Source: Bacteroidia bacterium (GTDB lineage Bacteria; Bacteroidota; Bacteroidia; SpSt-205). From it: a stretch of 64,000 bases of DNA. Positions 10,160 through 40,425 of the stretch are shown in pieces. Position 1 is the first letter of the stretch. Each line of letters starts with the position of its first letter. The notes under the pieces are model-generated. The model did no database searches. It was not told the origin of the DNA and saw only the letters and a program-made list of their open reading frames with translations. The DNA is taken from contig JAOAHZ010000009.1 in the NCBI GenBank assembly GCA_026414975.1, positions 8,038 through 72,037 on the forward strand, written 5' to 3'. The translations under genes and the position numbers were made by a program.

Positions 10160-13100
10160 TCAACGAAGTAGCGTTACCGTACCATGCTTTCTGACTTCCC
10201 GTCCCTCTCCATCTACTCCGACGAATAGATAGATATAAACCCCCTCAGGGAGAGGTTGTCCATCTTTATTTCTCCCATCCCAAACCCTACTCATGTCCCC
10301 TCCGTTTGTCCAAACCTCCCCTCCCCACCGATCATACAACACGACGGTATAGCGCTGGAATCCAGGGGCTTGAATAGCCCAAAAATCATTAATACCATCT
10401 CCGTTTGGAGTAACAGCTAAAGGAATCGCAAGACCTGGACACGCTGGAAGTCGCACTTGGGTAGAACTCTCAGCGGTGCAGCCGCCAGCGGTGGTTACGA
10501 CTAATCTGACAGATAGATTTATTTGCTGCGGATCGGGGAATGTACGCTCTTCAACAGATTGGCCCGATACGTTTTGCACGCCATCGCTCCATATCCAAGT
10601 ATAACTGAAAGGAGGCGTCCCTTGAATATCCGCCCTCACCCGGACAGCCCGAGGAGGAGGACATTCAGCTGCGGGCTCTACTTGCAACGCTCGTATCTCC
10701 ACTTGGTTAGCATAAGGCACCTCTATAGACACCGGACCGTAGGTGCAACCATTCTGATCAGTAAGTGAGACAGTATAGCGCCCCGGACGAAGTCCAGAGG
10801 CTACATTGTTAGATGATGTGGCCAAGATATTTCCAGCTGAGTCTCGCCAAGTGTATGTGTAAGGTGGCGTACCTCCAGTAACAACCAGTTGAATCTCTCC
10901 ATCGGCAGCTTCAGGGCAGGAGGCAGGACGAATCGCACTATCGCTGATAGCGATTGGAGTTGGCTCAGGAAAATTAACGGTAGCCGTTCCCGTACAGCCC
11001 AAGTTATCCATTGCTTCAACAGTGTAAGTGCCAGCGGGTATATCGGTAAAGACACCCGTGGTGTTCGTGATACCCAGAGGCTGCAGAGTATAAGTAAAGA
11101 CATTTCCTCCATTTCCACTGGTAGCTTGAACCGTGAAGCTGCCCAAGCCCCCATGGCAAAGTATGGGCTGCGTAACCTGTTGAAGCTGCACCGATACCGC
11201 TGCGCCTGGAGATACCTCCACCACTCGGGATACCAGACACCCATTTGCATCCCTCACCTGAATGGTATAAGAACCCACACCCAGCCCTGTGAAAGTAGGA
11301 TTTGAGGTCCAGGTGGGATAGGTAGGAAGAACGCTGTACTCATAGGGGGGTGTTCCGCCCTGTCCTTGAAGAGTAACTCGCCCTGCTGGGAAAGCATCAC
11401 ACGAACTAAGAAAGGAATCTACCAACACAACCATCAGTGGATCCGGCTGAGGAAGGGTTACAGTCAAGGTGCCAGAACACCCCAACGAATCGGTGGCTCG
11501 TACAGTATAAGTACCCGCTGGAATCCCTGTAAAGATACCTGTAGTGTTGGTGAGACCTAAGGATGGGATGCTATAAGTAAAGGTAGAGCCCCCGTTTCCA
11601 CCACTGGCTTGAACCGTAAAGCCCCCTGTTCCTCCATTGCACAATATAGGCTGATGTATCTGCTGAAGCTGCACCGATACCGCTGCCCCTGGTGTAACGC
11701 TCACAGTACGAGAAAAGACACACCCCTTAGAGTCCCGAACTCGCAGGGTATATGTACCTACCCCTAAGCCCGTAAAACTGGGATTGGAGGTCCATGCAGG
11801 GGCTACAGGCAAGACACTATACTCATAAGGAGGAGTACCTCCCTGACCCTGAAGCACAACGAATCCTGATGACTGCCCCCCACAAGCAATCAAAAGGGAG
11901 TCTAAAAGAACTAAGGTCAAAGGAGGAGGGTCTTGAAGCTGAACAACCCGCCGCTGGATACATCCCATCCCGTCGCGTATCCACACAGTGTAGGTTCCAG
12001 CTGAACGGTTGCTCCACGTAGAAGTAGCGCTCCAACCACTTGTAGGGGGTATTGAGGCAGCCCCCGTTACAAGCACAAACTGATAGGGAGATAGCCCTCC
12101 ACTTACCTGAGCCGATATCTGACCCGTCGGTGTGCCAATACAGCTCGGAATAGATAGGCTTACCTGAATGTTCATCGTATCCAACACAGAGAAGACAAAC
12201 GTGTCCGCTGCTGCCCCTGGAGGGACCGTAGTAGTGGGAAGGGCTACGTTACATTGGTCCTGAATGGGGATATTGTTTGTTCCACCTGTGGGAGCACCGG
12301 GATCGTTTGGATCGTTGTAGTTGATATAGAGGGTATAGCTTCGATTGGGCACGAGCGGCTGTCCAACCGTAAGTTCTACCGTGTTTGTTTGAGGAGGATT
12401 GAGAGGTGTAGCCGCAGTCAAGGGTACTGGGAGATTGGTAGTGTTGTCAAACAGGGTAAAATCCGACCCATCCAGGGCTACGGATGAAGGCAGGATTAGC
12501 TCATTGAATCGCACCCGGAGACGAGAGAGAGCGGGCAGTTGTGTGTCATAGTCATCACTGCATACTCGGTAGACACTATCGATGCGTGGAGGACTATTAT
12601 CAAAGTACTGCGCAGTGCCGTAGAAAGTGATGGTAAAACCGACATTATTGTTGCTCCAGTTATCCACTAAGAGGAGAAAGGTTTGACCAGCTGTTACATT
12701 GAGTCCGGGCATCACAGCCGGACCAATGGCACCATGGAATATACTGCCCGGCTGTGGATTTGTATGGTCTAAACCCGTAAGACCATTATTGGAGCAGTTT
12801 ATGCCCCCACAGCAGGTAGTTACATTAGGCATAGAAAAGTTACAGCGTATCGGGGAGGGCACATTCCCTGTACCTTGAAAGATGGAGCAGGGGTTTTGCA
12901 GTCCGGTTACATCCCATAGAGCAAAGTCATAGTCATTTCCAGTTGCGGCATTAGGACAGATGAGAAATCCCAAAGTTCCTCCACTTTGTATGGTGAATAT
13001 GAACCAGACACTGCGATGCTCACCCCCTGAAAGGCAGGTACCTCGGCCATTGGTACTTAGCTCGGACACGAGCCCAGCGGAAGGGATTCCCCCCGGGTAA

Positions 13101-13297
13101 CTATAAGTTGCGCCGCATAGACGTATAGCTCCGCTACAATCGGACTCGGGCAGATTGAGGGGGGTAGGAAACCCTGGGGGAGAGGGCGGGGAAGCATAAG
13201 GATTAATCCCTTGCTCTTTGAGCCGAATATACACGCTATCTGGCAGCCCTTGTGCCATCAGTAGCCCAGCCGACACGAGCACAAGCAATCTATGCAT
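10160..13297 (-). CDS. Large secreted SprB-repeat adhesin-like protein with a T9SS type-B (gliding-motility-associated, CHU_C-like) C-terminal sorting domain
   Basis: C-terminus 'AVTPNGDGINDFWAIQAPG...YDRWGGEVW' is the type-B CTD. There are multiple SprB-type repeats (…QGQGGTPPYEYSVLP…GTYTV…D..GC…). The N-terminus is a Cys-rich domain. The likely start is the signal peptide MHRLLVLVSAGLLMAQG at 13297; the track ORF extends to 13345. Confidence 0.85.
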   Translation of the reverse strand: MHRLLVLVSAGLLMAQGLPDSVYIRLKEQGINPYASPPSPPGFPTPLNLPESDCSGAIRLCGATYSYPGGIPSAGLVSELSTNGRGTCLSGGEHRSVWFIFTIQSGGTLGFLICPNAATGNDYDFALWDVTGLQNPCSIFQGTGNVPSPIRCNFSMPNVTTCCGGINCSNNGLTGLDHTNPQPGSIFHGAIGPAVMPGLNVTAGQTFLLLVDNWSNNNVGFTITFYGTAQYFDNSPPRIDSVYRVCSDDYDTQLPALSRLRVRFNELILPSSVALDGSDFTLFDNTTNLPVPLTAATPLNPPQTNTVELTVGQPLVPNRSYTLYINYNDPNDPGAPTGGTNNIPIQDQCNVALPTTTVPPGAAADTFVFSVLDTMNIQVSLSIPSCIGTPTGQISAQVSGGLSPYQFVLVTGAASIPPTSGWSATSTWSNRSAGTYTVWIRDGMGCIQRRVVQLQDPPPLTLVLLDSLLIACGGQSSGFVVLQGQGGTPPYEYSVLPVAPAWTSNPSFTGLGVGTYTLRVRDSKGCVFSRTVSVTPGAAVSVQLQQIHQPILCNGGTGGFTVQASGGNGGSTFTYSIPSLGLTNTTGIFTGIPAGTYTVRATDSLGCSGTLTVTLPQPDPLMVVLVDSFLSSCDAFPAGRVTLQGQGGTPPYEYSVLPTYPTWTSNPTFTGLGVGSYTIQVRDANGCLVSRVVEVSPGAAVSVQLQQVTQPILCHGGLGSFTVQATSGNGGNVFTYTLQPLGITNTTGVFTDIPAGTYTVEAMDNLGCTGTATVNFPEPTPIAISDSAIRPASCPEAADGEIQLVVTGGTPPYTYTWRDSAGNILATSSNNVASGLRPGRYTVSLTDQNGCTYGPVSIEVPYANQVEIRALQVEPAAECPPPRAVRVRADIQGTPPFSYTWIWSDGVQNVSGQSVEERTFPDPQQINLSVRLVVTTAGGCTAESSTQVRLPACPGLAIPLAVTPNGDGINDFWAIQAPGFQRYTVVLYDRWGGEVWTNGGDMSRVWDGRNKDGQPLPEGVYIYLFVGVDGEGREVRKHGTVTLLR
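10952..11920 (-). repeat. Intragenic tandem duplication, two ~483-bp units (161 aa each, ~70% aa identity) within the SprB-like gene
   Basis: Protein residues ~476-637 and ~637-798 are colinear. 27-nt near-identical DNA cores sit at 11177-11203 and 11660-11686, an offset of 483 nt. Confidence 0.8.
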
Positions 13298-13396
13298 CTT
13301 GGCAAAGATAGACCTTCTACCTGAGACCTGAACTGGAGAGAACAACTACCCGAAGTCAGTGGTATTAGATTAGACCTGAGATGTTACTTTCGCTGC

Positions 13397-16208: not shown

Positions 16209-16349
16209 GCCAAGCCCCATAAACAGGCAGAAGCCGAGTCAAAGGTGTGGTTTTGATTGGTATCACCTCAATCGTACATAGACGACTGCGTCAAGCCAAC
16301 CCATTTTGCCCCTATTCATCATCCAAAGATAGAAAGGTATCTTTGCGGC

Positions 16350-18194
16350 ATGCGGCGAGTCGGCCGAGTGCCCCTCATAGAAGGGGAATGGGCTCTGAAG
16401 CGCGAGCTCATTCGCTCCACGACTTGGGGCGGCTTCGTAGCCACGACCCTATGGGGGTGCCCGACTCGTAAATATCATAGCTGGTTCTCGCTCTGGAAAG
16501 GCTTTCACCGCTATGAGCTAATGCCGCAAATGCAGGAGGAGCTGCATTTGCGAGATGGACGCTTTCTACTTACCACTCATTATTTCCATGGAAAGCGCAT
16601 TTGGGAAGGCTATCGGCATCTCCAGAGCTTCCAAAATGGCTCAATGTGGCGATGGGTGTATCAAATCGGCGAGCTTTCTGTAGAAAAATCTCTTTACCTC
16701 TCTCCCACAGAACCCCTCTGGCTTTTGAAGTACCGCTTCTCGCAGGATGTAGTATTTCGCTGGATACCGCTCTGGGCTGCTCGCCCTTGGCACACTTTGC
16801 GCTACGAATTCATCTCAGTAGAGAGACAAGGGCAACGAATCCGTCTCCCCGAAGGAATAGAGCTATACTTCTCGGTGGAGCCTGTACCGCGCTTCATTCC
16901 GTGGAGCTACCCGTATACGGGCAGCTATTATCCTGAAGAGCATGCCCGAGGTTATGAAGCTACTGAAACCCTCACCTCCGCTGAATGCTGGGAATGGCGC
17001 CTCCACCAACCTGATGACATCATCATAGCTTTGAGCCCCGTAGCTCCCCCCAACCCTCCAACAGACCTGCCTCACGAAAAGACTCTGCACCCCACCTTTA
17101 TTCAAAGCTTAGAAGAGTCAGCGGAAAACTTCTTCCTAAGGGATAGCACAGGTGAATACATCTTAGCAGGACATCCTTGGTTCGGTGTATGGGGTAGAGA
17201 TACATTCATCAGTTTGCCTGGTCTCACATTAGCTCGGGGTCAGGTAGAGCGCTTTCACTACATCATGGAAACAGCTCTGAGCTACCTTTCCTCCGACGGT
17301 CAGCTTCCGAATATTTATCCTGATGGCTATACAGCCGAAGACACAGGCTTATGGTTCATATGGGCCCTCCTCCAAGCGCATCGTATGGGAATCCCTGCAG
17401 ACGAGCTATGGAGTCGCTATGGAGAGGCTGTATTAAGCGTGCTGGTTAGCTACCTTCAGCGACTGGGACAAGAGGATGGCCTCCTTCATGTGGAGCCTTT
17501 CCCATCCGCCTCTTGGATGGATGCGGTCGTAGAGGGCCGTCCTGCGGTGGAGCGTCGGGGGACCCTCGTGGAAATGAATGCTCTCTGGTACGCCGGACTT
17601 CGCTTTGTGGCTGAATACGCCTCCACTGAGGGAATACGATGGCGCTGGGGGCTCTTAGCCCGAAGAGTATTAGAATCCTTCAAGCCTGCTTTCTGGGCCA
17701 AATCTCGCGGTTACCTCGCCGACTGGCGAGACACCGAGGAAACCAACTGGCAAATCCGCCCCAATCAAATCTTTACGGCTTCTCTACCCTACCGACCTAT
17801 CAGCGAAAAAATCGCTGAACTGGTCGTTGAGGTTGTAGAGAAACACCTCCTTACTCCTCGCGGACTGCGTACGCTCTCACCCGCAGACCCGGCTTATCAA
17901 GGCACTTATGCAGGTAACGCCGTGGAACGAGATCGCGCCTATCACAACGGCACGGCATGGCTTTGGCTATTGGGAAGCTACGCTGATGCCAAACTTAGTC
18001 TGTGGGGTGATAGCGCTCGTCCCGCCCTTCATAAGCTCTTACAAGGGCTTGAAGAGGATTTCTATTCATACGGCTGGGGGACATTAGCAGAAATCTATGA
18101 TGGGGACGCACCCCACACCCCCCGAGGGGCTCCCGCCCAAGCCTGGAGCGTCGCCGAAACCTTGCGCACTTTCTTTCTTCTGAAAGCTTTATGA
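16350..18194 (+). CDS. Glycogen debranching enzyme-like protein (amylo-alpha-1,6-glucosidase; GDE N-terminal and (alpha/alpha)6 catalytic domains)
   Basis: N-terminal 'EWALKRELIRSTTWGGFVATTLWGCPTRKYH' and the 'GHPWFGVWGRDTFISLPGL' motif of bacterial/archaeal GDE. I chose the start at M32 (16350) of the track ORF (16257). Confidence 0.75.
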   Translation: MRRVGRVPLIEGEWALKRELIRSTTWGGFVATTLWGCPTRKYHSWFSLWKGFHRYELMPQMQEELHLRDGRFLLTTHYFHGKRIWEGYRHLQSFQNGSMWRWVYQIGELSVEKSLYLSPTEPLWLLKYRFSQDVVFRWIPLWAARPWHTLRYEFISVERQGQRIRLPEGIELYFSVEPVPRFIPWSYPYTGSYYPEEHARGYEATETLTSAECWEWRLHQPDDIIIALSPVAPPNPPTDLPHEKTLHPTFIQSLEESAENFFLRDSTGEYILAGHPWFGVWGRDTFISLPGLTLARGQVERFHYIMETALSYLSSDGQLPNIYPDGYTAEDTGLWFIWALLQAHRMGIPADELWSRYGEAVLSVLVSYLQRLGQEDGLLHVEPFPSASWMDAVVEGRPAVERRGTLVEMNALWYAGLRFVAEYASTEGIRWRWGLLARRVLESFKPAFWAKSRGYLADWRDTEETNWQIRPNQIFTASLPYRPISEKIAELVVEVVEKHLLTPRGLRTLSPADPAYQGTYAGNAVERDRAYHNGTAWLWLLGSYADAKLSLWGDSARPALHKLLQGLEEDFYSYGWGTLAEIYDGDAPHTPRGAPAQAWSVAETLRTFFLLKAL

Positions 18195-19468
18195 GGGTTC
18201 TAATGTTGGGTTGGGAATTCCCCCCTCGCATTGCAGGCGGCTTAGCGGTGGCTTGTTATGGACTGGTTCGAGGGCTATCTCATCACGGAGTCAGTGTAAC
18301 GTTCGTTATGCCTTTGCGAACGGGAGAAGAACCGCCAGATGGTTACCGCCTGCTTGGCGCAAATGAAATAGATATTCCCTACACCCAGAGCTTATCTCTT
18401 CCGCCTTTTTGGCACACCGTCCGCTTCTATGGCGTCCAAACTACCTTAGGACCCTACTTGGAGCAGTTTCTAACCCCTGAGCTGCGTTTTGAGACAGTAC
18501 CCGAACCCGTCGTCTCAACAACCGAGAGCGCCCTTCGCTTAGAGTTTTCAGGTAAATACGGGCCAGACCTGCTTGATGAAGTGTATAAGTATGCCTACGC
18601 CGTAAGCCACTTAGCCGAAAGAGAAGAGTTTGACATTATACACGCTCATGACTGGCTGACCTACTTGGGCGGAGCGTGGCTCAAGGAAAAATCAGGCAAG
18701 CCCTTAGTGGTTCATGTGCATGCGACCGAATACGACCGCTCTGGCGAAAGCCCTAACCCCGCCATACTTGCTATAGAACGGTTAGGCATGGAAACAGCCG
18801 ATTTAGTGATTGCAGTGAGCTTTTATACCCGTTCGCTTATCGTGGATAAATACGCCATCCCCCCAGAGAAGATTTGGGCCATTCATAATGCGGTTCTACC
18901 CAAGGATCGCCAACCTATCCAACGCCCTCCATCGGAGCGGAAGGTCGTTACTTTTCTCGGACGGGTGACCCATCAAAAGGGACCGGAATATTTTGTGGAA
19001 GCAGCGGCTCGGTTGGCTCCTTACATTCCGGAAGCCCACTTTGTCATGGCTGGCACAGGAGACCTGCTCCGGAGTGTGATTCGGCGAGTTGCCCAGCTTC
19101 GCCTCGGAGCTCGGTTTAGTTTTACCGGATTCCTACCCCCTGCTGAGGTGGAACGCTTATTTGACCTGAGTGATGTGTATGTCATGCCTTCTGTATCGGA
19201 GCCTTTCGGTATCTCAGCTTTAGAGGCCTTGCGAGCAGGGGTGCCTGTGATTATCTCCAAGCAATCCGGTGTAGCTGAGGTCCTTCCGCATGCCCTGAAA
19301 GTGGATTTCTGGGATGTGGACGGCTTAGCTAACCTAATCTACGGGATTCTTCGGTATAAGGCTATCCGTCCGTTTTTCATTCGGTACGCCCAGGCAGAGC
19401 TATCCCAGCTTCAGTGGGAACGCTCCAGTGCCCGCGTGATTGAAGCCTATCAATCCATACTCGGATGA
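18191..19468 (+). CDS. GT4-family glycosyltransferase (glycogen-synthase-like alpha-glucan transferase)
   Basis: Glyco_transf_4 N-terminus 'MRVLMLGWEFPPRIAGGLAV' and a C-terminal GT1-fold Rossmann domain with E..G motifs. It has 4-nt ATGA overlaps with both neighbours. Confidence 0.75.
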   Translation: MRVLMLGWEFPPRIAGGLAVACYGLVRGLSHHGVSVTFVMPLRTGEEPPDGYRLLGANEIDIPYTQSLSLPPFWHTVRFYGVQTTLGPYLEQFLTPELRFETVPEPVVSTTESALRLEFSGKYGPDLLDEVYKYAYAVSHLAEREEFDIIHAHDWLTYLGGAWLKEKSGKPLVVHVHATEYDRSGESPNPAILAIERLGMETADLVIAVSFYTRSLIVDKYAIPPEKIWAIHNAVLPKDRQPIQRPPSERKVVTFLGRVTHQKGPEYFVEAAARLAPYIPEAHFVMAGTGDLLRSVIRRVAQLRLGARFSFTGFLPPAEVERLFDLSDVYVMPSVSEPFGISALEALRAGVPVIISKQSGVAEVLPHALKVDFWDVDGLANLIYGILRYKAIRPFFIRYAQAELSQLQWERSSARVIEAYQSILG

Positions 19469-20685
19469 AGCATATCTGCCTATACTTCCAAGTCCATCAG
19501 CCTTTCCGACTCCGCCTCTACCGGTTTTTTGATATCGGCATTTCCCATGATTATTATCATGAGCTGAACAATCGTACGCTCCTTCAGCGCATCGCTCGTA
19601 AATGTTATCTCCCCATGAATGCTCTCCTCAAAAAGCTGATAGACCACTGGGGACCTGAGCGGTTTTCGGTGGCTTTTGCTATCAGCGGGACTGCTCTGGA
19701 GCAAATGCGTCTCTACGCGCCAGAAGTTTTAGAGAGCTTCCAAGCCCTTCATCGTACGAAAGGGGTGGAATGGATAGGAGAAACCTACGGTCATAGCTTG
19801 GCTTGTCTCAAATCCCAAGATGAATTCAAGCGACAAGTGCGTCAGCACCAAGAATATATAGAGAAGCTCTTCGGTGTGCGTCCAACCATTTTTCGAAATA
19901 CTGAGCTGATCTACTACGATGAGTTAGCCCGCTGGGTGGCTGAAATGGGCTTCAAAGCTATGTTAGCGGAGGGAGCCGACACCTTGCTGGGCTGGCGCAG
20001 CTCTAACTATCTCTACGAGAGCGCTGTAGCCCCCCTCAAACTGCTCTTACGCAACTATAAGCTCAGTGATGATGTAGCCTTTCGTTTCTCGGATAGAAGA
20101 TGGAGCGAATGGCCTTTGACAGCTGAGAAATATGCCCACTGGTTCTCTGACATTCCTGCAGACCAGCGGCTTATCAATTTATTCATGGATTACGAGACCT
20201 TTGGCGAACATCAGTGGGCTGAGACGGGCATATTTGAGTTCTTTGAACATTGGGTGAATCAAATGATCTCAGAAGAACGAGCCATCTTTCTTACCCCGTC
20301 TCGGGTTATAGAGATGCACCAGCCCGTGGCTAAACTATCGGTTCCCATGCCTCTCTCTTGGGCGGATTCAGAACGTGATTTGACGGCTTGGTTAGGCAAT
20401 GAGCTTCAAACAGATGCCTTTGAAACGCTCTATGAATTAGAGCCTCTGGTAAGAGAGGAAGAAGACCCCTCTATCCAGCGAGACTGGCTGCGCCTTCAGA
20501 CCAGCGATCATTTTTACTACATGTGCACTAAGTTTTTTTCAGACGGCGATGTGCATAAATACTTCAATCCCTACAACTCGCCTTATGAGGCTTATGTTAC
20601 CTATATGAATGTGCTGGCCGACTTTCGTACGCGTCTGCGAGAGAAATCAGCGGAAGCGCTGAAAGTAGCGACAAAATCCCTGTGA
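19465..20685 (+). CDS. Glycoside hydrolase family 57 protein (short, ~400-aa subgroup; specificity unknown)
   Basis: GH57 region I 'VHQP' at the N-terminus, a 'WVAEMG' region (putative nucleophile Glu), and 'DYETFGEH'. Confidence 0.7.
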   Translation: MKHICLYFQVHQPFRLRLYRFFDIGISHDYYHELNNRTLLQRIARKCYLPMNALLKKLIDHWGPERFSVAFAISGTALEQMRLYAPEVLESFQALHRTKGVEWIGETYGHSLACLKSQDEFKRQVRQHQEYIEKLFGVRPTIFRNTELIYYDELARWVAEMGFKAMLAEGADTLLGWRSSNYLYESAVAPLKLLLRNYKLSDDVAFRFSDRRWSEWPLTAEKYAHWFSDIPADQRLINLFMDYETFGEHQWAETGIFEFFEHWVNQMISEERAIFLTPSRVIEMHQPVAKLSVPMPLSWADSERDLTAWLGNELQTDAFETLYELEPLVREEEDPSIQRDWLRLQTSDHFYYMCTKFFSDGDVHKYFNPYNSPYEAYVTYMNVLADFRTRLREKSAEALKVATKSL

Positions 20686-24351: not shown

Positions 24352-26943
24352 TCACTCCGTGATAAGCAGCTTGAAGCTGACAGGCTGCCGATCAGAAGAG
24401 CGAACCTGGAGGGTATACAGACCCGCAGGAAGGGAGAGAGGCAACCGAGCCGGTAAGCTCTCTATGGTATATTGAGCGGCGACCTGCCCCATCGGGTTGA
24501 TCACATATACCACCGCTTGACCTTGCATAGCTTGATCAGCGTAAAGGTAAACTTCACTGCGAGTTGGATTAGGGAAGAGATACCAACCTACTGTCCCTTC
24601 CCTATCCACCAAGGAGGTAGATATGTTTAGACTTTGCACCAAACTATCCTCACCACAGCTATTTTGGGCATAGACTTTCACGGTATAGTTTCCTGGCGCA
24701 GCGTAAGTATGCGTACCAGACGCACCCGTTGCGGTTTGTCCATCTCCGAAGTCCCATCGCACACTAGAAGTATGAGCGACACTCACACTGTAAGTCAGCG
24801 TCAACCCGCTAGCTTGGAGGGATAAGTTGCTTAGCTGCGGGAGTGGTCTTATGATTAGCGTATCTCGGAGTGTATCTCGGACCCCTCCGCACCCTTCAGC
24901 AATGGCTAATACAACAGTGGGCCCGTTGCCCTGAGGAACCCGAAAACTTCCATATGCGTAAAAACTCATAGGAGACGCCCAGCTTGTAAGCTGATAGGGA
25001 ACGCCTGATTCGTACACCAATGTATTCCCCACGAAAATCTTTACATTTTGAGCTTCCCTACCACTTAAGCCGATAGGAATGATGGAGCCCGCGCATACGT
25101 CTCGGAGCCCGATTTGGAAATAGTTTAGCTTCGGACTACCTTCTAAGGCGGGTACATTGAATACCTGGGTGTGCCGCACACACCCATAAGTCTTTTCTAC
25201 CAAGAAGTAGCTGAAATCACTCGCAGGATAAGTTAGGGTTACAGTGTCAGTAGGATCGTTAGGAGTCACGACACTTCCGTCAGGAAGGATATAACGGATC
25301 GTGTGGGGTGGTTCAGAAGAAAATGGAATACTCGTGACCTTTACAACCCCTGCGGACCCTCTACATGAAGCTCCAAGTACCTCCAGGCTCACGGAGCTAG
25401 TGTACCCCGGAACAGACAAGGGCCAGGAGTGGCTATATGCTTTTCCACATCCATTCAACAATAAAACATCAACAGAATACGAGCCGGGATTAGGTGGGGC
25501 AGGCAGAAGGGTGTCTAATTGACTCCAAAGACGGAAGGGTAATCCTCCATTGAGCCAGGAGGCCGTGATACGAATCTCCGAACCTGCCTGACTTAGGGAG
25601 AAGTTAGCTGAAGGAAGTATGGTTAGGTTTATATTCCCCCCTGGGCATATAGGCTGGGGAGTGATGATAAGGAAATAGTTAGGGAATGAGTCTAGGATAG
25701 GAGGCACCCAGTCAATCGTATCAATTCGGCTGAGGCAATCTAACTCTTGACGCACGCGAATGCGGTGGGGAAGATTACCCGAGAAAGTTACTCGAATCTG
25801 GTTGCCTGTGGTATCCCAGACTCCATCATAGTTTATATCCCAAGATATTTGTCCCACACCCACGGCATAAATCTCTACCGGCGTCCCTGAACATGAGCCT
25901 GCATTGTTGTTAGAGTTTAAGAAGATGGGGGGAAGGGTAGAAGAAGCATCATAAACTCGGACAAATATTGTATCCTCATCAGTTATCCAAGGTGAGCACG
26001 GATACTTGATCGCATATACCATCTTGTAAAGACCAGCTGCTGAGGGCCTCCAATAACGGGGCTCACCATTCAAGCGAACACCTCCGACGACCGTGCCATT
26101 ATGATTCAGAACGATCATACTATCAGAAAAGTAGCCTTGGTATGCATTGTAGTCGGATTGGATATAAAATGAGTCTCCTAAACAGAGCCCCATAGGCCAT
26201 ACATAGGGATTCAGGGGAAGAGGTGTATTGAGACTGAAGGGATCAGTAGTTATGCCGTAGAGACCATTCTGTGAAACACCGCAGACGTATGTCGTTATTT
26301 CAATATTCCATGGTTGCAAATTAGGGACAGTAAGGGTGAAGGTTCTCCGATTGCGGAGAGTATCGGTAGGATTAGGACCATACCTGACAATGAAGCTATC
26401 TACACCTAAAGGTACTTTTAGAACGAAACTTAGGCTGGAGCCAGGACAATACACTTCAAGTGAGGAGAGTTCAGGCGACTCAATCTGTACATAAGGCCTG
26501 TAGTTTCGGAGGCGTCTAACCGCCGTGGCCGAATCTCCATTCGCAAAACGCACGGTCAAGAGATAAGTTGGATCGTATACAGAAGGATTGACATCGATCC
26601 CTACTTTGCGTCGGTTAGGCAATCCTGAGAAAGGAAATGAAATCGGGTTGGACGGAGAAACAGTAGCATCCCGATCGTCATAGATAACCATACTAACAGG
26701 AAAAAAGCCCGTAGCCTCGTACAGCGTCCAGCCTGTGATTCCTCGAGCTTGCATGCCTACTGTATCCACGACTATCCAGAGTCGTTGATTGCAGACAAAT
26801 CGCCCTGAAATGGGGTTTTGTCCATTACCAAGGGAATCCAAGTACACATCCCAAGCTGTCCAAGGCTGACGATTCTGAGCCCATCCGAGGGCCGCAAGAT
26901 AAGCTACGAATCTGGCGAGTCGCATGGCTAGTTTTCTACACAA
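24352..26943 (-). CDS. Secreted PKD-domain protein with a T9SS type-A (Por_Secre_tail) C-terminal sorting domain
   Basis: The C-terminal ~80 aa 'WYLFPNPTRSEVYLY...GLYTLQV' is the type-A CTD. A PKD domain is present ('WDFGDGQTATG...HTYAAPGNYTVKV'), and there is a signal peptide. Confidence 0.8.
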   Translation of the reverse strand: MCRKLAMRLARFVAYLAALGWAQNRQPWTAWDVYLDSLGNGQNPISGRFVCNQRLWIVVDTVGMQARGITGWTLYEATGFFPVSMVIYDDRDATVSPSNPISFPFSGLPNRRKVGIDVNPSVYDPTYLLTVRFANGDSATAVRRLRNYRPYVQIESPELSSLEVYCPGSSLSFVLKVPLGVDSFIVRYGPNPTDTLRNRRTFTLTVPNLQPWNIEITTYVCGVSQNGLYGITTDPFSLNTPLPLNPYVWPMGLCLGDSFYIQSDYNAYQGYFSDSMIVLNHNGTVVGGVRLNGEPRYWRPSAAGLYKMVYAIKYPCSPWITDEDTIFVRVYDASSTLPPIFLNSNNNAGSCSGTPVEIYAVGVGQISWDINYDGVWDTTGNQIRVTFSGNLPHRIRVRQELDCLSRIDTIDWVPPILDSFPNYFLIITPQPICPGGNINLTILPSANFSLSQAGSEIRITASWLNGGLPFRLWSQLDTLLPAPPNPGSYSVDVLLLNGCGKAYSHSWPLSVPGYTSSVSLEVLGASCRGSAGVVKVTSIPFSSEPPHTIRYILPDGSVVTPNDPTDTVTLTYPASDFSYFLVEKTYGCVRHTQVFNVPALEGSPKLNYFQIGLRDVCAGSIIPIGLSGREAQNVKIFVGNTLVYESGVPYQLTSWASPMSFYAYGSFRVPQGNGPTVVLAIAEGCGGVRDTLRDTLIIRPLPQLSNLSLQASGLTLTYSVSVAHTSSVRWDFGDGQTATGASGTHTYAAPGNYTVKVYAQNSCGEDSLVQSLNISTSLVDREGTVGWYLFPNPTRSEVYLYADQAMQGQAVVYVINPMGQVAAQYTIESLPARLPLSLPAGLYTLQVRSSDRQPVSFKLLITE

Positions 26944-27000
26944 ATATCATGCCAGGAAGCCCGAGCCCAATACTTCAAGCATAGGGGCTACCTTTGGAGC

Positions 27001-30000
27001 ATGAAAGATGAGGTGGTGCTTCCCATGCGTAGTCCTCTTCTTTTTGAGGTGAGCTGGGAGGTCGCTAACAAAGTAGGGGGCATTTTTACGGTCTTAGTCG
27101 GCAAGGCACCGATTGTGTATAGGCAGCGGGAGGGCAAGTATTGGCTCATTGGTCCTTACCTATCTGGGCGCCTTATGCATTGGGAAAGCAGCCCCCATTT
27201 GTATAGGGATTGGTGTGAATATTTCCTACGGGAGCAGGGCATCCCCGTTCACGTAGGTCACTGGAAGATAGAGAACCTTCGCCTACCGACTTTGCTTATA
27301 GATTTCTACCCTGCTCTCAATAGGCGAAACGAACTTTTCAAACAGTGGTGGGAAAAGTATGGGGTAGAATCGCTATGGGGAGATTGGGATTACATTGAAC
27401 CGGCGATATTTGGTTACATAGCGGGGGAAGTTATAGCCAGTTTTCGTTCATTTTATTACGGAGAAGTAGAAACCATAGCCCATTTTCACGAGTGGCTCAC
27501 GGGTGCGGGCGTCCTATGCCTCAGGGAACGGGCACCTTCTATCGCTACGCTTTTTACCACACATGCAACGGTAGCTGGACGGGCTGCTGGGGGGGCGCTG
27601 ATTCCCCACACCGAACTCACGGAATGGCTGAAGATGCGCGGGCTGCTTAGCAAGCATACCTTAGAGCGAGCGGCGTGGCAGCAAGCGGATGCTACCACCA
27701 CAGTCAGCGAGATTGTCAGCCAAGAAGCAGCTCACTACTTGGGACATGGAGCCGATGTGATTACCCCTAACGGGTGGCAGCCCCCTAATGATTTACCCAC
27801 AAAGGCGGCTCGCGAATGGCTGAGTAGCCTCGCAGTACGCTGGGGATGGACCGAGTCTCCCGCTTGGCTTTTACATAGCGGTCGTCCTGAGCTAGAAAAC
27901 AAAGGGACCATCCCTCTCATAGAAGCTATTCGCCGATACAAATCCGAAGCTGCTCCTACGAGACCTCTCGGTGTGATATTCGCCATGCCGGGTGATGCCA
28001 TCGCTCCGCAGGAAGGTCCCAATTATCCCTTGTGGGTAAGCCACGCTTTACGCGCTCCCGAAGCCGACCGCCTCCTCCAACTTTTACAAAGTTTAGAGCT
28101 CTGTAACTCAGACCCTGTCCGAATCGCCTATCTCCCGGTGTACTTAGAAGGTAATGACGGCGTGGTCAATCTGCCTTATTATGCTCTACTTTCCGCAGTG
28201 GATTTTACAGCGTTTCCATCCAAGTACGAGCCTTGGGGCTACACGCCTCAGGAAAGTTTAGGAATGGGGATTCCTACCCTTTCGGCGTATCAAGCAGGCT
28301 TTGGACGGTGGATGTTGGAGCATGTCAAGCCGCTGCCTGAAGCGCTTTCTCTAATAGACTATGAGAAGCCAGACCCTGCCGGACAGATTCTACGCTGGAT
28401 TCGTCGTCGGGTGGATACCCCAGCGGAAAAACGAGAGACTTTACGACAAGAGGCGCGACGCTTAGCTGAATTCACGCTTTGGGTTCATTTCTTGCCTTTC
28501 TACCAGCAAGCCTACCAAGTTGCTCTCGCTAAATCTCAGGCGCGCCTATGGCATAGATTAGCCCCTCTCCCCTCACCCGAGAGGAGGAGCTTTATTTGGC
28601 ACCGGGCTTTTTTCCTTCCGAATCTGCCTGAACCTCTGCGTCCCCTACGCATACTCGCCTACAATCTCTGGTGGAGTTGGAATCCTGAGGCACAACAGCT
28701 ATTCCGCACCATTGATCCTGAAGCCTGGGAAGCCTATGAGAATCCTGTCTGGCTTCTGAATCATACCTCAAGCCAACGCTGGATGGCCCTCAGTCAAGAA
28801 GAGGATTTTCTTCGCCAGCTGCGCCAGGTTCTGCAACGATTCCAGAGTTATATGGCTCAACCCTCCGCTCCAGATAAACCAAAAGTGGCTTATCTATGCA
28901 TGGAGTATGGCCTGGCCAAATGCTTACCTTTTTACTCGGGGGGATTAGGGGTATTGGCTGGAGATTACCTCAAAGAGGCTAGCGATCAAGGCTATCCGAT
29001 CATAGGCATAGGCCTATTGTATCGGCGAGGCTACTTTCAGCAGCGAATCAGCCCCGAGGGAGAGCAGCTCGCAGAGGATACACCCCTTCGCTTTACAGAC
29101 CTTCCCATAGAGCCTGTACGAGAAGCAGACGGACGCTGGCTTCACCTACAGATTGAGTTAGGCGAGCAAATCTTGCTTCTCAAAGTTTGGCGCGTTCATG
29201 TAGGAAGGGTACCTCTTTATCTTCTGGATGCGGACCTCTCAGAGAATCCTCCTGAACTGCGGGAGGTTACGGCTCGTCTGTACGAAGGCGATATGGAACG
29301 CCGCCTCCAGCAGGAGCTCGTCTTGGGCTTTGGCACCCAAGCCTTAGTGCAAAGCCTGAATCTTTCCATAGACCTCTTTCATTACAATGAAGGGCACCCA
29401 GCCTTTCATCTCTTAGCGTTATGGACTGATCTGCGAGAGAAAGGCTATACTCTCCAAGCTGCTCAAGAGAAAGCTCGCTTGCGCACGATATTTACCACAC
29501 ACACCCCCGTACCAGCTGGCCATGATGTATTCCCATTTGACCTATTACGCCGCTATCTTTATCCTAAAGTTCGGACGCTGGGGCTGCCTTGGGAACAGTT
29601 CCTTAGCCAAGGGGAAATGCCAGACGATCCTGGTAAGTTTTCTCTCACCGCCTTTTGCCTGCGCTATGCGGGACGAACAAACGGCGTGAGTCAGCTTCAT
29701 GCGCAGGTATCCCGACGCATGTTTGCCGAACTCTATGAAGGCTATCTACCCCAAGAGATTCCGATTCAAGGCATCACCAATGGCGTTCACGTATCAACTT
29801 GGCGGGCACCAGAGTGGAACCGATCCCGACGCACTTGGGAAACACATCAAACCTTGCGTAATGCCCTAATCAACTATCTTAAGCGGCGATTATTACCTGA
29901 ACCGGGACCAGTGGACTACTTAGAAGCAGCCCGTGCATTTTTCACCGGCTTAGAAGAGGGGGTCCTTCTAATAGGTTTGGCGCGCCGATTCGCTACCTAC

Positions 30001-30981
30001 AAGCGACACAACCTCTTATTTGAGCAGGAGAGCCTGAAAAAGCTCTTCGCAGAGGAGCCCATACGCCTCATCGTAGCAGGAAAGGCTCATCCACGCGACG
30101 AAGCAGGAAAAAAGGTGCTAAAAGAAGTCTGGTGGCGCAGCTTAGAACCGCCCTTTTGGGGAAAGGTGCTTTTCGTGCCTGATTACGACATGCAGTTAGC
30201 CCGTTACCTGATTCAAGGTGTAGATTTATGGCTCAATCTCCCTATTTATGGGCATGAAGCCAGCGGTACAAGTGGCATGAAAGCCGCTCTCAACGGGGTC
30301 CTCCACCTAAGTGTACCCGACGGATGGTGGGCCGAAGTCATCCCTTCCGAAGCAGGCGGGTGGAGCATTCCAGTATGTCCGTCAGAGGAGCCTAAAATAC
30401 GAGACGCCTGGGAGGCTACGCAGTTAGCCTACCTTTTGCGAGAGGAAATAATACCCCTTTATCGGTCCCGCGACCCCCGAGGCATCCCCATGGAATGGGT
30501 GGCCCGGATGGAACGGGCCCAAACCTATGTCGTTTCGCGCTTCTCTACTCATCGCATGCTTGATGAGTATGAGGACTCGCTCTATCAACCCGCTCACAGA
30601 AGTTTGGCTAAACTTTCATCGGATGTTTTCCTGCGTAGGCTGTCCTTGATTGAATCTATCAAAGAAAACTGGTCAACCATACGTATTCGCTCAGTCGTCC
30701 TTCCGCCTTTCTCAGAAAGAGCACACTCTACCCGAGTGCCTTTCTCTGTAGAAGTGGTAGTAGAGACCGATAGCATACCTTCGGAAGTCCTTCGGGCAGA
30801 AATCGTCTTTGAATCAGCGAAGGGTGAAGTCCATGTCTTTCCCCTTAGCCTCGTAGAAGTGGGACGATTCCGGGGTGAGGTAACGATAGACGATGCAGGC
30901 GTATATCACTACGCTATACGGGTGTATCCTTGGGACCCATTTCTTGAGGAACGGCTTTGGAACTGGGTCAAAGTGGTTTAG
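27001..30981 (+). CDS. Bifunctional-architecture protein: N-terminal GT3 glycogen synthase fused to a C-terminal GT35 alpha-glucan phosphorylase (1326 aa)
   Basis: N-terminus: 'LFEVSWEVANKVGGIFTVL', 'HFHEWLTGAGV...FTTHATVAGR', 'KYEPWGYTPQESLGMGIPT' (GT3). C-terminus: 'KVAYLCMEYGLAKCLPFYSGGLGVLAGDYLKEASDQG', 'EASGTSGMKAALNGVL' (GT35 PLP-Lys region). No stop codon anywhere in between. Confidence 0.85.
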   Translation: MKDEVVLPMRSPLLFEVSWEVANKVGGIFTVLVGKAPIVYRQREGKYWLIGPYLSGRLMHWESSPHLYRDWCEYFLREQGIPVHVGHWKIENLRLPTLLIDFYPALNRRNELFKQWWEKYGVESLWGDWDYIEPAIFGYIAGEVIASFRSFYYGEVETIAHFHEWLTGAGVLCLRERAPSIATLFTTHATVAGRAAGGALIPHTELTEWLKMRGLLSKHTLERAAWQQADATTTVSEIVSQEAAHYLGHGADVITPNGWQPPNDLPTKAAREWLSSLAVRWGWTESPAWLLHSGRPELENKGTIPLIEAIRRYKSEAAPTRPLGVIFAMPGDAIAPQEGPNYPLWVSHALRAPEADRLLQLLQSLELCNSDPVRIAYLPVYLEGNDGVVNLPYYALLSAVDFTAFPSKYEPWGYTPQESLGMGIPTLSAYQAGFGRWMLEHVKPLPEALSLIDYEKPDPAGQILRWIRRRVDTPAEKRETLRQEARRLAEFTLWVHFLPFYQQAYQVALAKSQARLWHRLAPLPSPERRSFIWHRAFFLPNLPEPLRPLRILAYNLWWSWNPEAQQLFRTIDPEAWEAYENPVWLLNHTSSQRWMALSQEEDFLRQLRQVLQRFQSYMAQPSAPDKPKVAYLCMEYGLAKCLPFYSGGLGVLAGDYLKEASDQGYPIIGIGLLYRRGYFQQRISPEGEQLAEDTPLRFTDLPIEPVREADGRWLHLQIELGEQILLLKVWRVHVGRVPLYLLDADLSENPPELREVTARLYEGDMERRLQQELVLGFGTQALVQSLNLSIDLFHYNEGHPAFHLLALWTDLREKGYTLQAAQEKARLRTIFTTHTPVPAGHDVFPFDLLRRYLYPKVRTLGLPWEQFLSQGEMPDDPGKFSLTAFCLRYAGRTNGVSQLHAQVSRRMFAELYEGYLPQEIPIQGITNGVHVSTWRAPEWNRSRRTWETHQTLRNALINYLKRRLLPEPGPVDYLEAARAFFTGLEEGVLLIGLARRFATYKRHNLLFEQESLKKLFAEEPIRLIVAGKAHPRDEAGKKVLKEVWWRSLEPPFWGKVLFVPDYDMQLARYLIQGVDLWLNLPIYGHEASGTSGMKAALNGVLHLSVPDGWWAEVIPSEAGGWSIPVCPSEEPKIRDAWEATQLAYLLREEIIPLYRSRDPRGIPMEWVARMERAQTYVVSRFSTHRMLDEYEDSLYQPAHRSLAKLSSDVFLRRLSLIESIKENWSTIRIRSVVLPPFSERAHSTRVPFSVEVVVETDSIPSEVLRAEIVFESAKGEVHVFPLSLVEVGRFRGEVTIDDAGVYHYAIRVYPWDPFLEERLWNWVKVV

Positions 30982-31174: not shown

Positions 31175-31984
31175 TCACACCGCTACAGGAGCAGGTATGG
31201 GAGCGTGATGCTTGTAATCTATGAGACGAATATCCTCCGGAGTAAAATCCTCCAAGTCAAGACAGCGCGAATTCAGTTCTAGGCGGGGCAACGGGTAAGG
31301 CTCTCGGCTAAGCTGGAGACGAGCCTGGTCCTCGTGATTGCGGTATAAATGGACGTCTCCCAATGCGAAGATGACGCGGTGAGGCCTATATCCTGTTACT
31401 TGAGCCACCATGTGCAGCAGCAGAGCATACGAGGCGACATTGAAAGGAAGGCCTAAAAACACATCAGCGCTACGTTGATATACCTGAATAGAGAGATGAC
31501 CTGTATTCGGCTCAGCGTAGAACTGGAACAGCACATGGCAGGGAGGCAGCTTCATCTCGGGCAAATGCGCTACATTCCATGCGGAGACCAACAGACGACG
31601 ACTGTAAGGATTCTCGCGGAGGGTTTTCACGACGGCGCCCAGTTGATCATAATACTCCCCTTGATAACCTTGCCAACGCCGCCACTGGTATCCATAAATA
31701 GGACCTAAGTTGCCCTCAGCATCAGCCCATTCGTCCCAAATCGTAACTCCATGCCGATGGAGGTATTCAATGTTGGTTTCACCTCGCAGAAACCAGAATA
31801 GTTCGTATAGAATGGACTTGAAATGAACCTTTTTTGTCGTCAGCAAAGGGAACCCTTCGTGCAAGCTAATATCCAGCTGCACCCCGAATAGGCCGCGCAC
31901 ACCAACTCCAGTCCGATCCATGCGTACAGGAGCCTCCAACAGACGCTTCAGCAGAGAGAGGTAATCTCGCTCGTAGTTGCTCAT
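31175..31984 (-). CDS. thyA: Thymidylate synthase
   Basis: 'RTGVGVRGLFGVQL', 'LPPCHVLFQFY', 'SADVFLGLPFNVASYALL'. Length 269 aa. Confidence 0.9.
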   Translation of the reverse strand: MSNYERDYLSLLKRLLEAPVRMDRTGVGVRGLFGVQLDISLHEGFPLLTTKKVHFKSILYELFWFLRGETNIEYLHRHGVTIWDEWADAEGNLGPIYGYQWRRWQGYQGEYYDQLGAVVKTLRENPYSRRLLVSAWNVAHLPEMKLPPCHVLFQFYAEPNTGHLSIQVYQRSADVFLGLPFNVASYALLLHMVAQVTGYRPHRVIFALGDVHLYRNHEDQARLQLSREPYPLPRLELNSRCLDLEDFTPEDIRLIDYKHHAPIPAPVAV

Positions 31985-38987: not shown

Positions 38988-39665
38988 CTACCTATGCCAC
39001 GGGGAGAGCGCCTCGTGAGGCAGTTCTCCAGACAGTCGAAATATCTCGCCCTCGGGCTGTATCTCTATGCTTAGAATGCCGATGAGAGTGTATTTGATGA
39101 GAATTTTTCGCGCTTTCCACCCTTCGCGCGGACCAAGTAGCAGGCGCAAAGTCCTCTCATCAATGAAAGGATGCTTGCGAAGGTAGGTCAAGAGTCGCTC
39201 CTCAGCGCGCCGATAGTAAATGTGCTGGGGCAGTTTTTGGGCTTTCCATAAGGCTTCTAAAAGCCCACCAGCGAGGCGCGTTTTATCCCCTACTCGCACA
39301 TAAGCCCGAAGCGTCCCATCCTCTTCCCTCACGTAGTAGGGGCGCAGGTCGGGACGCATAGGCACTTGCACTTCCAAAACCTGCTTAGCTTCCCAATCAT
39401 GAACCGTCGTAGCGAAATGAATAGGGGGGACCACGTAGCGAGTCGCAGCTAACTCCACCATGTAGAATTCCTGCTCAGGGTCTACGCCGCAGATTTTACC
39501 GTTGTCTTTGACGCCGATTAGCAGAGCCCCTCCTTCTGTATTGGCAAAAGCAGAAAGGGTGCGAGCGATTTTCCGAGCGCTTTCTATGCGCTGCTTGAAG
39601 TCTAAGTGCAAACCCTCTCCCGCGGCTATGCGAGCCAGCAGGGGTGAGCTTTCCCACCCCGCCAT
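38988..39665 (-). CDS. AlbA_2 (Schlafen-like 'putative DNA-binding') domain protein, short form
   Basis: 'HLDFKQ...LSAFANTEGGALLIGVKDNGKICGV' is the AlbA_2/AAA_4 core. The start was chosen at M48 (39665) to avoid overlapping fabG; the track ORF runs to 39806. Confidence 0.55.
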   Translation of the reverse strand: MAGWESSPLLARIAAGEGLHLDFKQRIESARKIARTLSAFANTEGGALLIGVKDNGKICGVDPEQEFYMVELAATRYVVPPIHFATTVHDWEAKQVLEVQVPMRPDLRPYYVREEDGTLRAYVRVGDKTRLAGGLLEALWKAQKLPQHIYYRRAEERLLTYLRKHPFIDERTLRLLLGPREGWKARKILIKYTLIGILSIEIQPEGEIFRLSGELPHEALSPWHR

Positions 39666-39702
39666 ACCCCGAAGGTAGCAAATAACCATGTATGTTCGCG
39701 TC

Positions 39703-40425
39703 ATGCGTTTCTCGGACCAAGTCATTCTCGTAACGGGAGGTACTCGCGGTATCGGTAGAGCTATTGTGGAAAAGCTATTGGCTGAAGGGGCTCGAGTAGC
39801 CTTCACCTACCGAGGCTCTAAGGAACTTGCGGATTCCCTTATTCAACAAGCCCCTGACCGTCTCCTCGCCTTTCAAGCCGACGTAACCGATTCTTCACGC
39901 ACGGAAGCTGTCATCGCTGAAGTACTGAAGGCTTGGCAAAAAATTGACGGCCTTGTCAACAACGCCGGCATCACTCAGGATAACCTCCTCTTGCGCATGA
40001 GCGAAGCCCAGTGGGATACGGTCATTACAACGAATCTCAAGGGGCCATTCTTGTACAGCAAAGCGGTACTCAAGCCCATGCTCGCTCAGCGCCGAGGTTC
40101 TATCGTGAATATCACTTCTATTGTAGGCCTTCAAGGTAACCCCGGCCAAGCTAACTATGCCGCCGCTAAGGCTGGTCTCATCGCCTTCACGAAATCGCTT
40201 GCCAAGGAGGTAGGGTCCCGCAACATCCGAGTGAACGCCATAGCCCCTGGTTTCATTCGGACCGACATGACGGCGGATCTCCCCGCAGAAGAATGGAAGA
40301 AGCGTATCGCCTTGGGTCGGCTCGGCGAACCGCAGGAGATAGCTACGCTTTGCGCCTTTCTGTTATCAGACGAAGCTTCGTACATTACAGGACAAGTGCT
40401 CGTCGTTGATGGAGGCATGCTATAA
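39703..40425 (+). CDS. fabG: 3-oxoacyl-[ACP] reductase
   Basis: 'VILVTGGTRGIGRAI', 'NAGITQDNLLLRM', 'YAAAKAGLIAFTKSLAKE'. The alternative start is 39688. Confidence 0.85.
   Translation: MRFSDQVILVTGGTRGIGRAIVEKLLAEGARVAFTYRGSKELADSLIQQAPDRLLAFQADVTDSSRTEAVIAEVLKAWQKIDGLVNNAGITQDNLLLRMSEAQWDTVITTNLKGPFLYSKAVLKPMLAQRRGSIVNITSIVGLQGNPGQANYAAAKAGLIAFTKSLAKEVGSRNIRVNAIAPGFIRTDMTADLPAEEWKKRIALGRLGEPQEIATLCAFLLSDEASYITGQVLVVDGGML

Follow-up and report, generated by a model that had tools for sequence, protein, structure and literature searches.

A fused glycogen synthase/alpha-glucan phosphorylase gene of the K16153 family in a Bacteroidia genome

We analyzed a 64,000-nucleotide (nt) stretch of the Bacteroidia contig JAOAHZ010000009.1 (the window, whose coordinates are used for all features) and, in it, a gene at 27001..30981 on the forward strand that probably encodes a bifunctional glycogen synthase/phosphorylase of the K16153 family, in which a conserved pair of genes is joined into one. 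The open reading frame (ORF) started with ATG, ended with TAG, and ran through 1326 codons with zero internal stops, in agreement with a preliminary description of this DNA, and every peptide motif quoted in that description was found in the translation. The N-terminal half was identified as a glycogen synthase of glycosyltransferase family 3 (GT3), and the C-terminal half as a phosphorylase of glycosyltransferase family 35 (GT35). The hidden Markov model search that had been proposed as a check of the two halves confirmed both, with PF05693, PF11897, and TIGR02094 all well over their cut-offs. The coordinates of the features are collected in Table 1.

First, the N-terminal half was examined. 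The Pfam model Glycogen_syn (PF05693) matched it with 203 bits (E 1.2e-59; cut-off 27), and residues 9-512 matched human GYS1 (8cvx) and yeast Gsy2 with an E value of 2.4e-54 for the single sequence and of 8.4e-117 for the family profile. In the AlphaFold2 model of the protein, the predicted local distance difference test score (pLDDT) of this half was mostly above 85, and a Foldseek search with the model found the GT-B fold enzymes GYS1 (8cvz) and Gsy2 (5sul) with a template modelling (TM) score (target) of 0.67-0.73 and an E value of about 1e-34. The earlier assignment of the N-terminal half to the GT3 glycogen synthases was thus upheld by family model, profile matches, and predicted structure.

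The active site of the synthase half was analyzed in an alignment of the window protein with 120 relatives (n=121, all fused), which were the matches listed in a search of a 5.8-billion-protein collection. The data showed that K24-I28, R295/K301, and E410/E418 were aligned to the corresponding GYS1 motifs and were invariant or nearly so. In the KVGGI loop, E16, W19, E20, G26, and G27 were present in 121/121 proteins and K24 in 117/121. R295 and K301 of the GRYExxNKG motif, which we take from work on yeast Gsy2 to serve the donor phosphate, were invariant in all 121. In the E-X7-E pair, E418 was invariant, and the position of E410 was occupied by E in 119 and by D in 2 of the 121 proteins. Also invariant were H163, E164, and W165 of HFHEWLTGAGV (residues 161-171), T186, H188, and R194 of TTHATVAGR (residues 186-194), and N257. 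The KVGGI loop, HFHEW, TTHAT..GR, GRYExxNKG, and E-X7-E, together with PF05693 and the GT-B fold, are shared with GYS1, Gsy2, and the Caenorhabditis elegans glycogen synthase, although the identity to these eukaryotic enzymes was about 25%. By analogy, the donor of the window enzyme is most likely uridine diphosphate (UDP)-glucose, as its GT3 membership and the precedent of Prevotella bryantii suggest. According to PMC7935935, which cites Lou et al. 1997, that species is without glgC and makes glycogen from UDP-glucose via a eukaryote-type synthase.

The C-terminal half, residues ~542-1326, contained a complete phosphorylase, with a DUF3417 helical domain, a GT35 core, and a C-terminal beta domain. 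The NCBIfam model TIGR02094 (alpha-glucan family phosphorylase) gave 631.8 bits (E 1.4e-189) against a cut-off of 191.7. However, the model of the canonical GlgP/MalP enzymes, TIGR02093, stayed at 59.3 bits, far short of its cut-off of 552.9, and the scores of the PRK14985 and PRK14986 equivalogs were far under their cut-offs. The half had been described as a canonical alpha-glucan phosphorylase; it is a phosphorylase, but its type is not the canonical one but the TIGR02094/DUF3417 'clade 2' type, which has an extra C-terminal beta domain. The DUF3417 model PF11897 was covered over its full length, and the C-terminal 126 residues aligned to the C-terminal domain of the Segatella copri glycogen phosphorylase (ScGP); a C-terminal beta-sheet domain is the hallmark of clade 2 phosphorylases (PMC12912991). 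The Thermococcales maltodextrin phosphorylase was considered as another identity and rejected, because the NF041129 equivalog gave 622 bits against a cut-off of 1500, which marks the protein as related to that enzyme but not identical with it.

ScGP (PDB 9L6I, 852 residues) was the closest counterpart of this half among solved phosphorylases. Residues ~540-1317 matched it with an E value of 1.3e-158, the family profile aligned to it nearly end to end (ScGP 7-851), and it was the best Foldseek match in the PDB, with 36% identity, a TM score (target) of 0.75, and a root mean square deviation of 2.3 Å. ScGP is an active phosphorylase that forms a pentamer wrapping the glycogen particle (PNAS 2026, PMC12912991). 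Its N-terminal helical domain builds the pentamer, K609 is the site of pyridoxal 5'-phosphate (PLP), and H316, R507, R508, and K513 bind substrate and phosphate (PMC12912991). By alignment, the window protein retained the PLP lysine and these phosphate and substrate residues. ScGP H316 fell within the aligned THTPVPAGHD motif, in which the window protein kept both H834 and H841. In the 121 fused proteins, K658, E797, H799, H834, R995, R996, Y1000, K1001, K1028, E1086, T1090, and K1094 were invariant, and H841 was found in 120. The motif AYLCMEYGL occupied residues 630-638, and YSGGLGVLAGDYLKEASD occupied residues 645-662. Adenosine monophosphate (AMP) inhibits ScGP competitively and by driving decamer formation, through the proximal contacts E278, Y512, and R508 and the distal contact R583 (PMC12912991). 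The corresponding residues of the window protein were E797, Y1000, R996, and R1068; the last position was most often K (63 of the 121 proteins) or R (43), together 106/121, with H in 6 and A in 3. ScGP differs from the window protein in that it stands alone, with the synthase encoded by a separate gene just upstream in Prevotellaceae loci; its length of 852 amino acids (aa) is that of the separate phosphorylase of Prevotella bivia. The window protein is also without a 28-residue segment of ScGP (~428-455).

The preliminary description had left room for a phosphorylase-derived, non-catalytic glucan-binding module, and more generally one of the halves could be a pseudo-enzyme that was retained for glucan binding or regulation. 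Opposing activities fused in one protein look wasteful, and a dead half would abolish the futile cycle between them; moreover, the canonical Pfam Phosphorylase model (PF00343) matched only two stretches and weakly so (67.7 bits; best stretch, residues 1020-1112). However, the weak match is explained by subfamily divergence, because TIGR02094 reached 631.8 bits, and ScGP, a stand-alone relative with 36% identity, is catalytically active. The alignment proposed earlier as a check of the PLP lysine and the GT3 catalytic residues found them intact, with K1094 and E418 invariant and E410 kept in 119/121. The two halves also diverged at similar rates: the identity to the nearest relative, P0001, was 75% for the GT3 half and 79% for the GT35 half, and to distant relatives it was 36-39% and 42-45%, respectively. 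Because the catalytic residues are near-invariant and the halves diverge similarly, a decayed or solely glucan-binding half appears unlikely from the sequences, and we regard a pseudo-enzyme in either half as very improbable.

The AlphaFold2 model was built for residues 1-1200 with 44 sequences, the C-terminal 126 residues lying outside it, and had a mean pLDDT of 89.8 and a predicted TM score (pTM) of 0.61. It consisted of two well-folded bodies, and residues 519-534 between them were the sole internal stretch with a pLDDT below 50. These residues were also the least conserved segment of the protein, with about 10% identity to distant fused relatives in comparison with 36-45% for both halves, and in relatives with split genes the stop codon and the next start fell at this position. 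The model thus predicts a disordered, flexible linker of about 16 residues. The two-half layout of the preliminary description held, but the sizes of ~600 and ~700 residues given there did not, since the halves are actually about 518 and 785 residues long. Its junction, at nt ~28800-28950, was likewise misplaced: the junction lies at residues 519-541 (nt ~28555-28625), about 250 nt upstream, and nt 28800-28950 are already within the phosphorylase helical domain.

A sequencing or assembly error might have erased a stop or frameshift between two neighbouring genes; separate adjacent GT3 and GT35 genes, ~27 nt or more apart, do exist in some Bacteroidales. However, all of the 25 closest listed relatives (51-76% identity, 1321-1345 aa) were uninterrupted with a recognisably conserved linker, P0001, which is 76% identical, was encoded identically in three separate NCBI assemblies, and the gene was fused in at least 44 genome loci. 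The split loci belonged to a different clade. An artefact of this kind is so improbable that it may be disregarded. The 25 closest listed relatives, which were found in metagenome bins only, formed with the window protein a compact clade, which a neighbour-joining tree placed on a branch separate from the main group of Bacteroidota. Proteins of this clade are shorter by ~13 residues in the GT3 half and by part of the linker; in the phosphorylase, ~28 residues are missing after residue 941, and the C-terminal domain lacks ~10 more. The ~28-residue gap (nt ~29821-29826; alignment columns 1032-1059) corresponded to a segment that ScGP (~428-455) and every longer fused protein possess, and oligomerisation or regulation could differ in the compact clade.

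The fused architecture is already known and widespread in Bacteroidota, and the window gene is a somewhat divergent member of the family. All of the 120 listed relatives were fused, with 95-100% query coverage, 1307-1437 residues, and the same Pfam set. Several carried JGI names such as 'glycogen phosphorylase/synthase' (P0040, P0049, P0073, P0082) or 'phosphorylase/glycogen(starch) synthase' (P0031, P0069, and others) at 98-99% query coverage, and NCBI names the relatives, from Bacteroidia, Bacteroidales, Chitinophagales, and Odoribacter, 'alpha-glucan family phosphorylase'. In KEGG, K16153 is 'glycogen phosphorylase/synthase [EC 2.4.1.1 2.4.1.11]' (PMC8307300, PMC11017998), and it serves as a marker of alpha-glucan synthesis (PMC11093988). 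The window protein has GT3 and GT35 in one polypeptide and is similar over its full length to proteins so named, which answers the earlier question of whether such a fusion had been catalogued: it has, both as K16153 and in JGI product names. The K16153 proteins of Chitinophaga rupis and Dysgonomonas, and P0040, P0049, and P0073, had the same order of GT3, linker, DUF3417, GT35 core, and C-terminal beta domain and the same catalytic residues, with 98-100% query alignment, but were only 33-39% identical to the window protein. We found no papers on the fused enzyme itself in the open-access literature searched, and the parts of a 2024 Chem Rev review (PMC11046441) that discuss Bacteroidetes GT3 synthases do not mention the fusion.

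The distribution of fused and split forms was investigated in a genome scan that took one genome per species and classified at least 80 loci by tblastn and ORF tracing; it is a sample, not a census, and the clade of the window protein itself was absent from the 80 loci. In at least 44 of these listed loci a single ORF spanned both halves, among them those of Chitinophaga rupis DSM 21039 (1388 aa), Dysgonomonas sp. HGC4 (1415 aa), Alistipes, Rikenellaceae, Lentimicrobiaceae, and Flavobacteriales. At least 20 had a GT3 gene with a separate phosphorylase gene directly after it. In Prevotella bivia DSM 20514, for example, genes of 553 aa and 852 aa were separated by 27 nt, and other split loci came from Phocaeicola vulgatus, Bacteroidaceae, Prevotellaceae, Muribaculaceae, Tannerellaceae, and Porphyromonadaceae. 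At least 16 had a phosphorylase and no GT3 gene within 8 kb. Whether fused or adjacent, the order in the listed loci was always synthase, then phosphorylase. The gene pairs of P. bivia and P. vulgatus thus encode the same two proteins in the same order, and 553 + 852 aa matches the length of the fused protein; they differ from it by the stop codon and short spacer between the genes. When the phosphorylase part was placed in a neighbour-joining tree (midpoint root, no support values), the split loci (among L026-L079, e.g. L033 8007-12254) formed one clade nested among the fused forms, which suggests a single gene fission in part of the Bacteroidales. The two genes shared a reading frame in 9 of the 20 split loci, which is not clearly above the one-third expected by chance.

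Some fused genes were found in bins with labels other than Bacteroidota: L032, L034, and L037 (Planctomycetota), L047 (Bdellovibrio), and L029 (Syntrophales). L032, L037, and L047 branched deep and may be true copies outside Bacteroidota. L027 ('Lachnospiraceae') and L077 ('Staphylococcus') fell within the clade of Bacteroidales split genes, and these contigs were probably mis-binned.

Linkage to other glycogen genes was seen elsewhere in the family. In C. rupis, a gene for a GH133 amylo-alpha-1,6-glucosidase lay 21 nt upstream of the fused gene, and in Dysgonomonas a GH57 gene lay upstream and a GH13/CBM48 gene downstream. Simultaneous synthesis and degradation of glycogen has been described in several rumen and non-rumen bacteria, e.g. 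Fibrobacter (PMC4432691).

These data fit a protein whose halves would act on the same glycogen particle. With a sugar nucleotide as donor, probably UDP-glucose, the GT3 half would lengthen alpha-1,4-glucan chains at their ends by glucose units, and the phosphorylase half would shorten the chains with phosphate and PLP, the flexible linker allowing both to reach the particle. The fusion would then be the covalent version of the synthase-then-phosphorylase pair, in which the stoichiometry is fixed at 1:1 and both activities are held on the particle. The net direction would be set by metabolites and not by gene expression, through the UDP-glucose supply and the phosphate/glucose-1-phosphate ratio, and probably also by AMP on the phosphorylase ring. 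Fused alpha-glucan enzymes have precedents in the GlgA-GlgB proteins of Waddlia and Estrella and in TreS-Mak (PMC7935935, PMC11046441). However, GlgA-GlgB and TreS-Mak join steps of the same direction, whereas the window fusion joins opposing steps.

Several points weigh against a bifunctional enzyme. Both activities together would make a futile cycle (UDP-glucose + Pi -> UDP + glucose-1-phosphate), and because of this a reciprocal control must exist if both operate. We infer the dual activity within one polypeptide from sequence, and the open-access literature searched held no enzyme assay of any fused member. With a pTM of 0.61, the mutual placement of the halves is not predicted by the model. 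In the window, a PKD-domain gene and thyA flank the otherwise isolated fused gene, a context that is uninformative. In addition, much of the regulatory apparatus of the eukaryotic synthases is missing. In the profile alignment, GYS1 ~379-437, which we take to be the tetramerisation insert, lies between two aligned blocks and was unmatched in the fused family. The arginine-rich regulatory helix retained only R482 well (R in 86 and K in 11 of 121), and the synthase C-terminus runs into the phosphorylase instead of a phosphorylation tail. The window protein is therefore a GT3 enzyme outside the eukaryotic regulated subtype of GYS1 and Gsy2, from which it differs in the insert, the arginine cluster, and the terminal tails. 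Because this apparatus is largely missing, control by glucose-6-phosphate cannot be assumed, and eukaryote-style control of that kind was rejected as unsupported, the arginine cluster not being conserved.

The phosphorylase half might instead mainly aid synthesis, either by holding the synthase on the particle or by making or extending maltooligosaccharide primers from glucose-1-phosphate, and so replace glycogenin. According to a 2024 review (PMC11046441), eukaryotic GT3 synthases require a primer made by glycogenin, and the review poses its substitute in prokaryotes with GT3 enzymes as a question; there was no sign of a glycogenin partner for the window protein. In the reverse direction, ScGP synthesises glucan and has a good Km for glucose-1-phosphate, and its pentamer wraps a glycogen particle and bears aromatic residues on its surface that bind glycogen, but its kcat in the synthetic direction is much below that of other phosphorylases (PMC12912991). 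The constant order of synthase before phosphorylase would also suit a role in priming or anchoring, but the 16 or more loci with no synthase nearby indicate that the phosphorylase works unlinked too. The intact catalytic residues are compatible with either direction and express no preference. Cellular phosphate is normally far above glucose-1-phosphate, which favours phosphorolysis. On this evidence, a phosphorylase half devoted mainly to priming or anchoring is unlikely, and a bifunctional synthase/phosphorylase is preferred.

A further extension of the bifunctional enzyme would be a single glycogen-particle machine, in which a ScGP-like pentameric ring carries a synthase on a flexible arm at each subunit and AMP-driven stacking of rings toggles between building and mobilising, or in which the ring is the primer or anchor that replaces glycogenin. 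We consider this arrangement speculative and rather doubtful; if true, it would be a reciprocal switch that acts via quaternary structure and not via phosphorylation.

Table 1. Position of the fused gene, its parts, and other features in the window
Feature	Residues	Position (nt)	Strand	Evidence or remark
Whole gene, fused glycogen synthase/alpha-glucan phosphorylase	1-1326	27001..30981	+	1326 codons + stop; full-length relatives at 98-100% coverage
GT3 glycogen synthase half, GT-B fold	~10-518	27028..28554	+	PF05693, GYS1/Gsy2 matches, Foldseek
FEVSWEVANKVGGI, glycine-rich donor-site loop (KVGGI loop)	15-28	27043..27084	+	Aligned to GYS1 FEVAWEVANKVGGI
SGRPELENKG, with R295 and K301 of the presumed donor-phosphate site	293-302	27877..27906	+	Profile aligns sGRyelenkG to GYS1 aGRyefsnkG
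KYEPWGYTPQESLGMGIPT, with E-X7-E pair E410/E418	408-426	28222..28278	+	Aligned to GYS1 YYEPWGYTPAECTVMGIPS
Inter-domain linker	519-534	28555..28602	+	Low pLDDT, low conservation
DUF3417 alpha-helical domain	542-642	28624..28926	+	PF11897 111 bits, model positions 1-109/109; aligns to ScGP N-terminal helical domain
GT35 catalytic core	~629-1200	28885..30600	+	TIGR02094, ScGP 9l6i match, Foldseek
RRFATYKR, phosphate/substrate residues R995, R996, K1001 and Y1000	995-1002	29983..30006	+	Aligned to ScGP RRFATYKR with R507, R508, K513, Y512
EASGTSGMKAALNG, PLP lysine K1094 (codon 30280-30282)	1086-1099	30256..30297	+	Aligned to ScGP EASGTSGEKAEMNG with K609
C-terminal helical connector and beta-sheet domain	~1201-1326	30601..30978	+	Aligns to ScGP ~700-841; profile reaches ScGP end
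PKD-domain protein gene, 863 aa, predicted surface/secreted		24352..26943	-	Divergent upstream neighbour
Thymidylate synthase gene thyA		31175..31984	-	Convergent downstream neighbour
Alpha-glucan cluster, three abutting/overlapping ORFs: GH133 (GDE_N + GDE_C, 645 aa), GT4/GT5-like (425 aa), GH57 (406 aa)		16257-20685	+	
Predicted surface/secreted protein, 1061 aa, SprB repeat and CHU_C type IX secretion signal domain		10160-13345	-	

The surroundings of the gene in the window were also analyzed. The fused gene is solitary, with the PKD-domain gene (24352..26943, reverse strand) divergent upstream and thyA (31175..31984, reverse strand) convergent downstream. There was no synteny with P0001, whose neighbours are genes for SRP54 and citrate synthase, and the local gene context is therefore without functional signal. 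The GH133-GT4-GH57 cluster lies 6.3 kb upstream; its families are those that directly adjoin the fused gene in C. rupis and Dysgonomonas. The GT4/GT5-like transferase of the cluster, a possible second glucan synthase, also matched the catalytic domain of starch synthases; among NCBIfam models, glgA_Coryne scored best, with 96.6 bits, under the cut-off. The guanine-plus-cytosine content was flat, at 0.48-0.53 over 22-36 kb and about 0.51 around the gene, and horizontal transfer was rejected as giving no signal in this profile.

An Rfam scan of the whole window found zero RNA families, hence no riboswitch, leader, or rRNA. A scan for sigma-70 promoters and terminators around the gene gave counts no higher than in shuffled sequence, with a sigma-70 model that is not suited to Bacteroidota promoters. 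The sequence TACCTTTG at 26989-26996 on the forward strand, 5 nt ahead of the ATG at 27001, fits TAnnTTTG, which we take to be the Bacteroidota -7 promoter box. If this box is functional, the transcript would begin at or inside the annotated start codon, giving a leaderless mRNA or a start at Met9 (27025); Met9 is not kept in the nearest relatives.

The rest of the window contains housekeeping genes, for aminoacyl-tRNA synthetases, DnaJ, SMC, topoisomerase I, SHMT, and malate dehydrogenase. The SprB/CHU_C protein and the PKD-domain protein point to a Bacteroidota genome. Unrelated to the fusion is a gene at 38988-39806 on the reverse strand, between genes for a thiolase and an RmlD-like reductase; its 272-aa product has a Schlafen AlbA_2 domain.

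For annotation, the proper name of the window gene product is glycogen synthase/alpha-glucan phosphorylase (K16153-type), because the NCBI name 'alpha-glucan family phosphorylase' conceals the synthase half. The gene itself contributes one compact, divergent member to the family, and the question of control is not made newly testable by it. The family as a whole raises two questions: how a futile cycle is avoided when the building and the degrading enzyme are in one protein, and how bacteria without glycogenin prime a GT3 synthase of the eukaryotic type. Members of the family abound in Bacteroidota of the gut, the rumen, and the environment, and its fused and split forms are a natural experiment.

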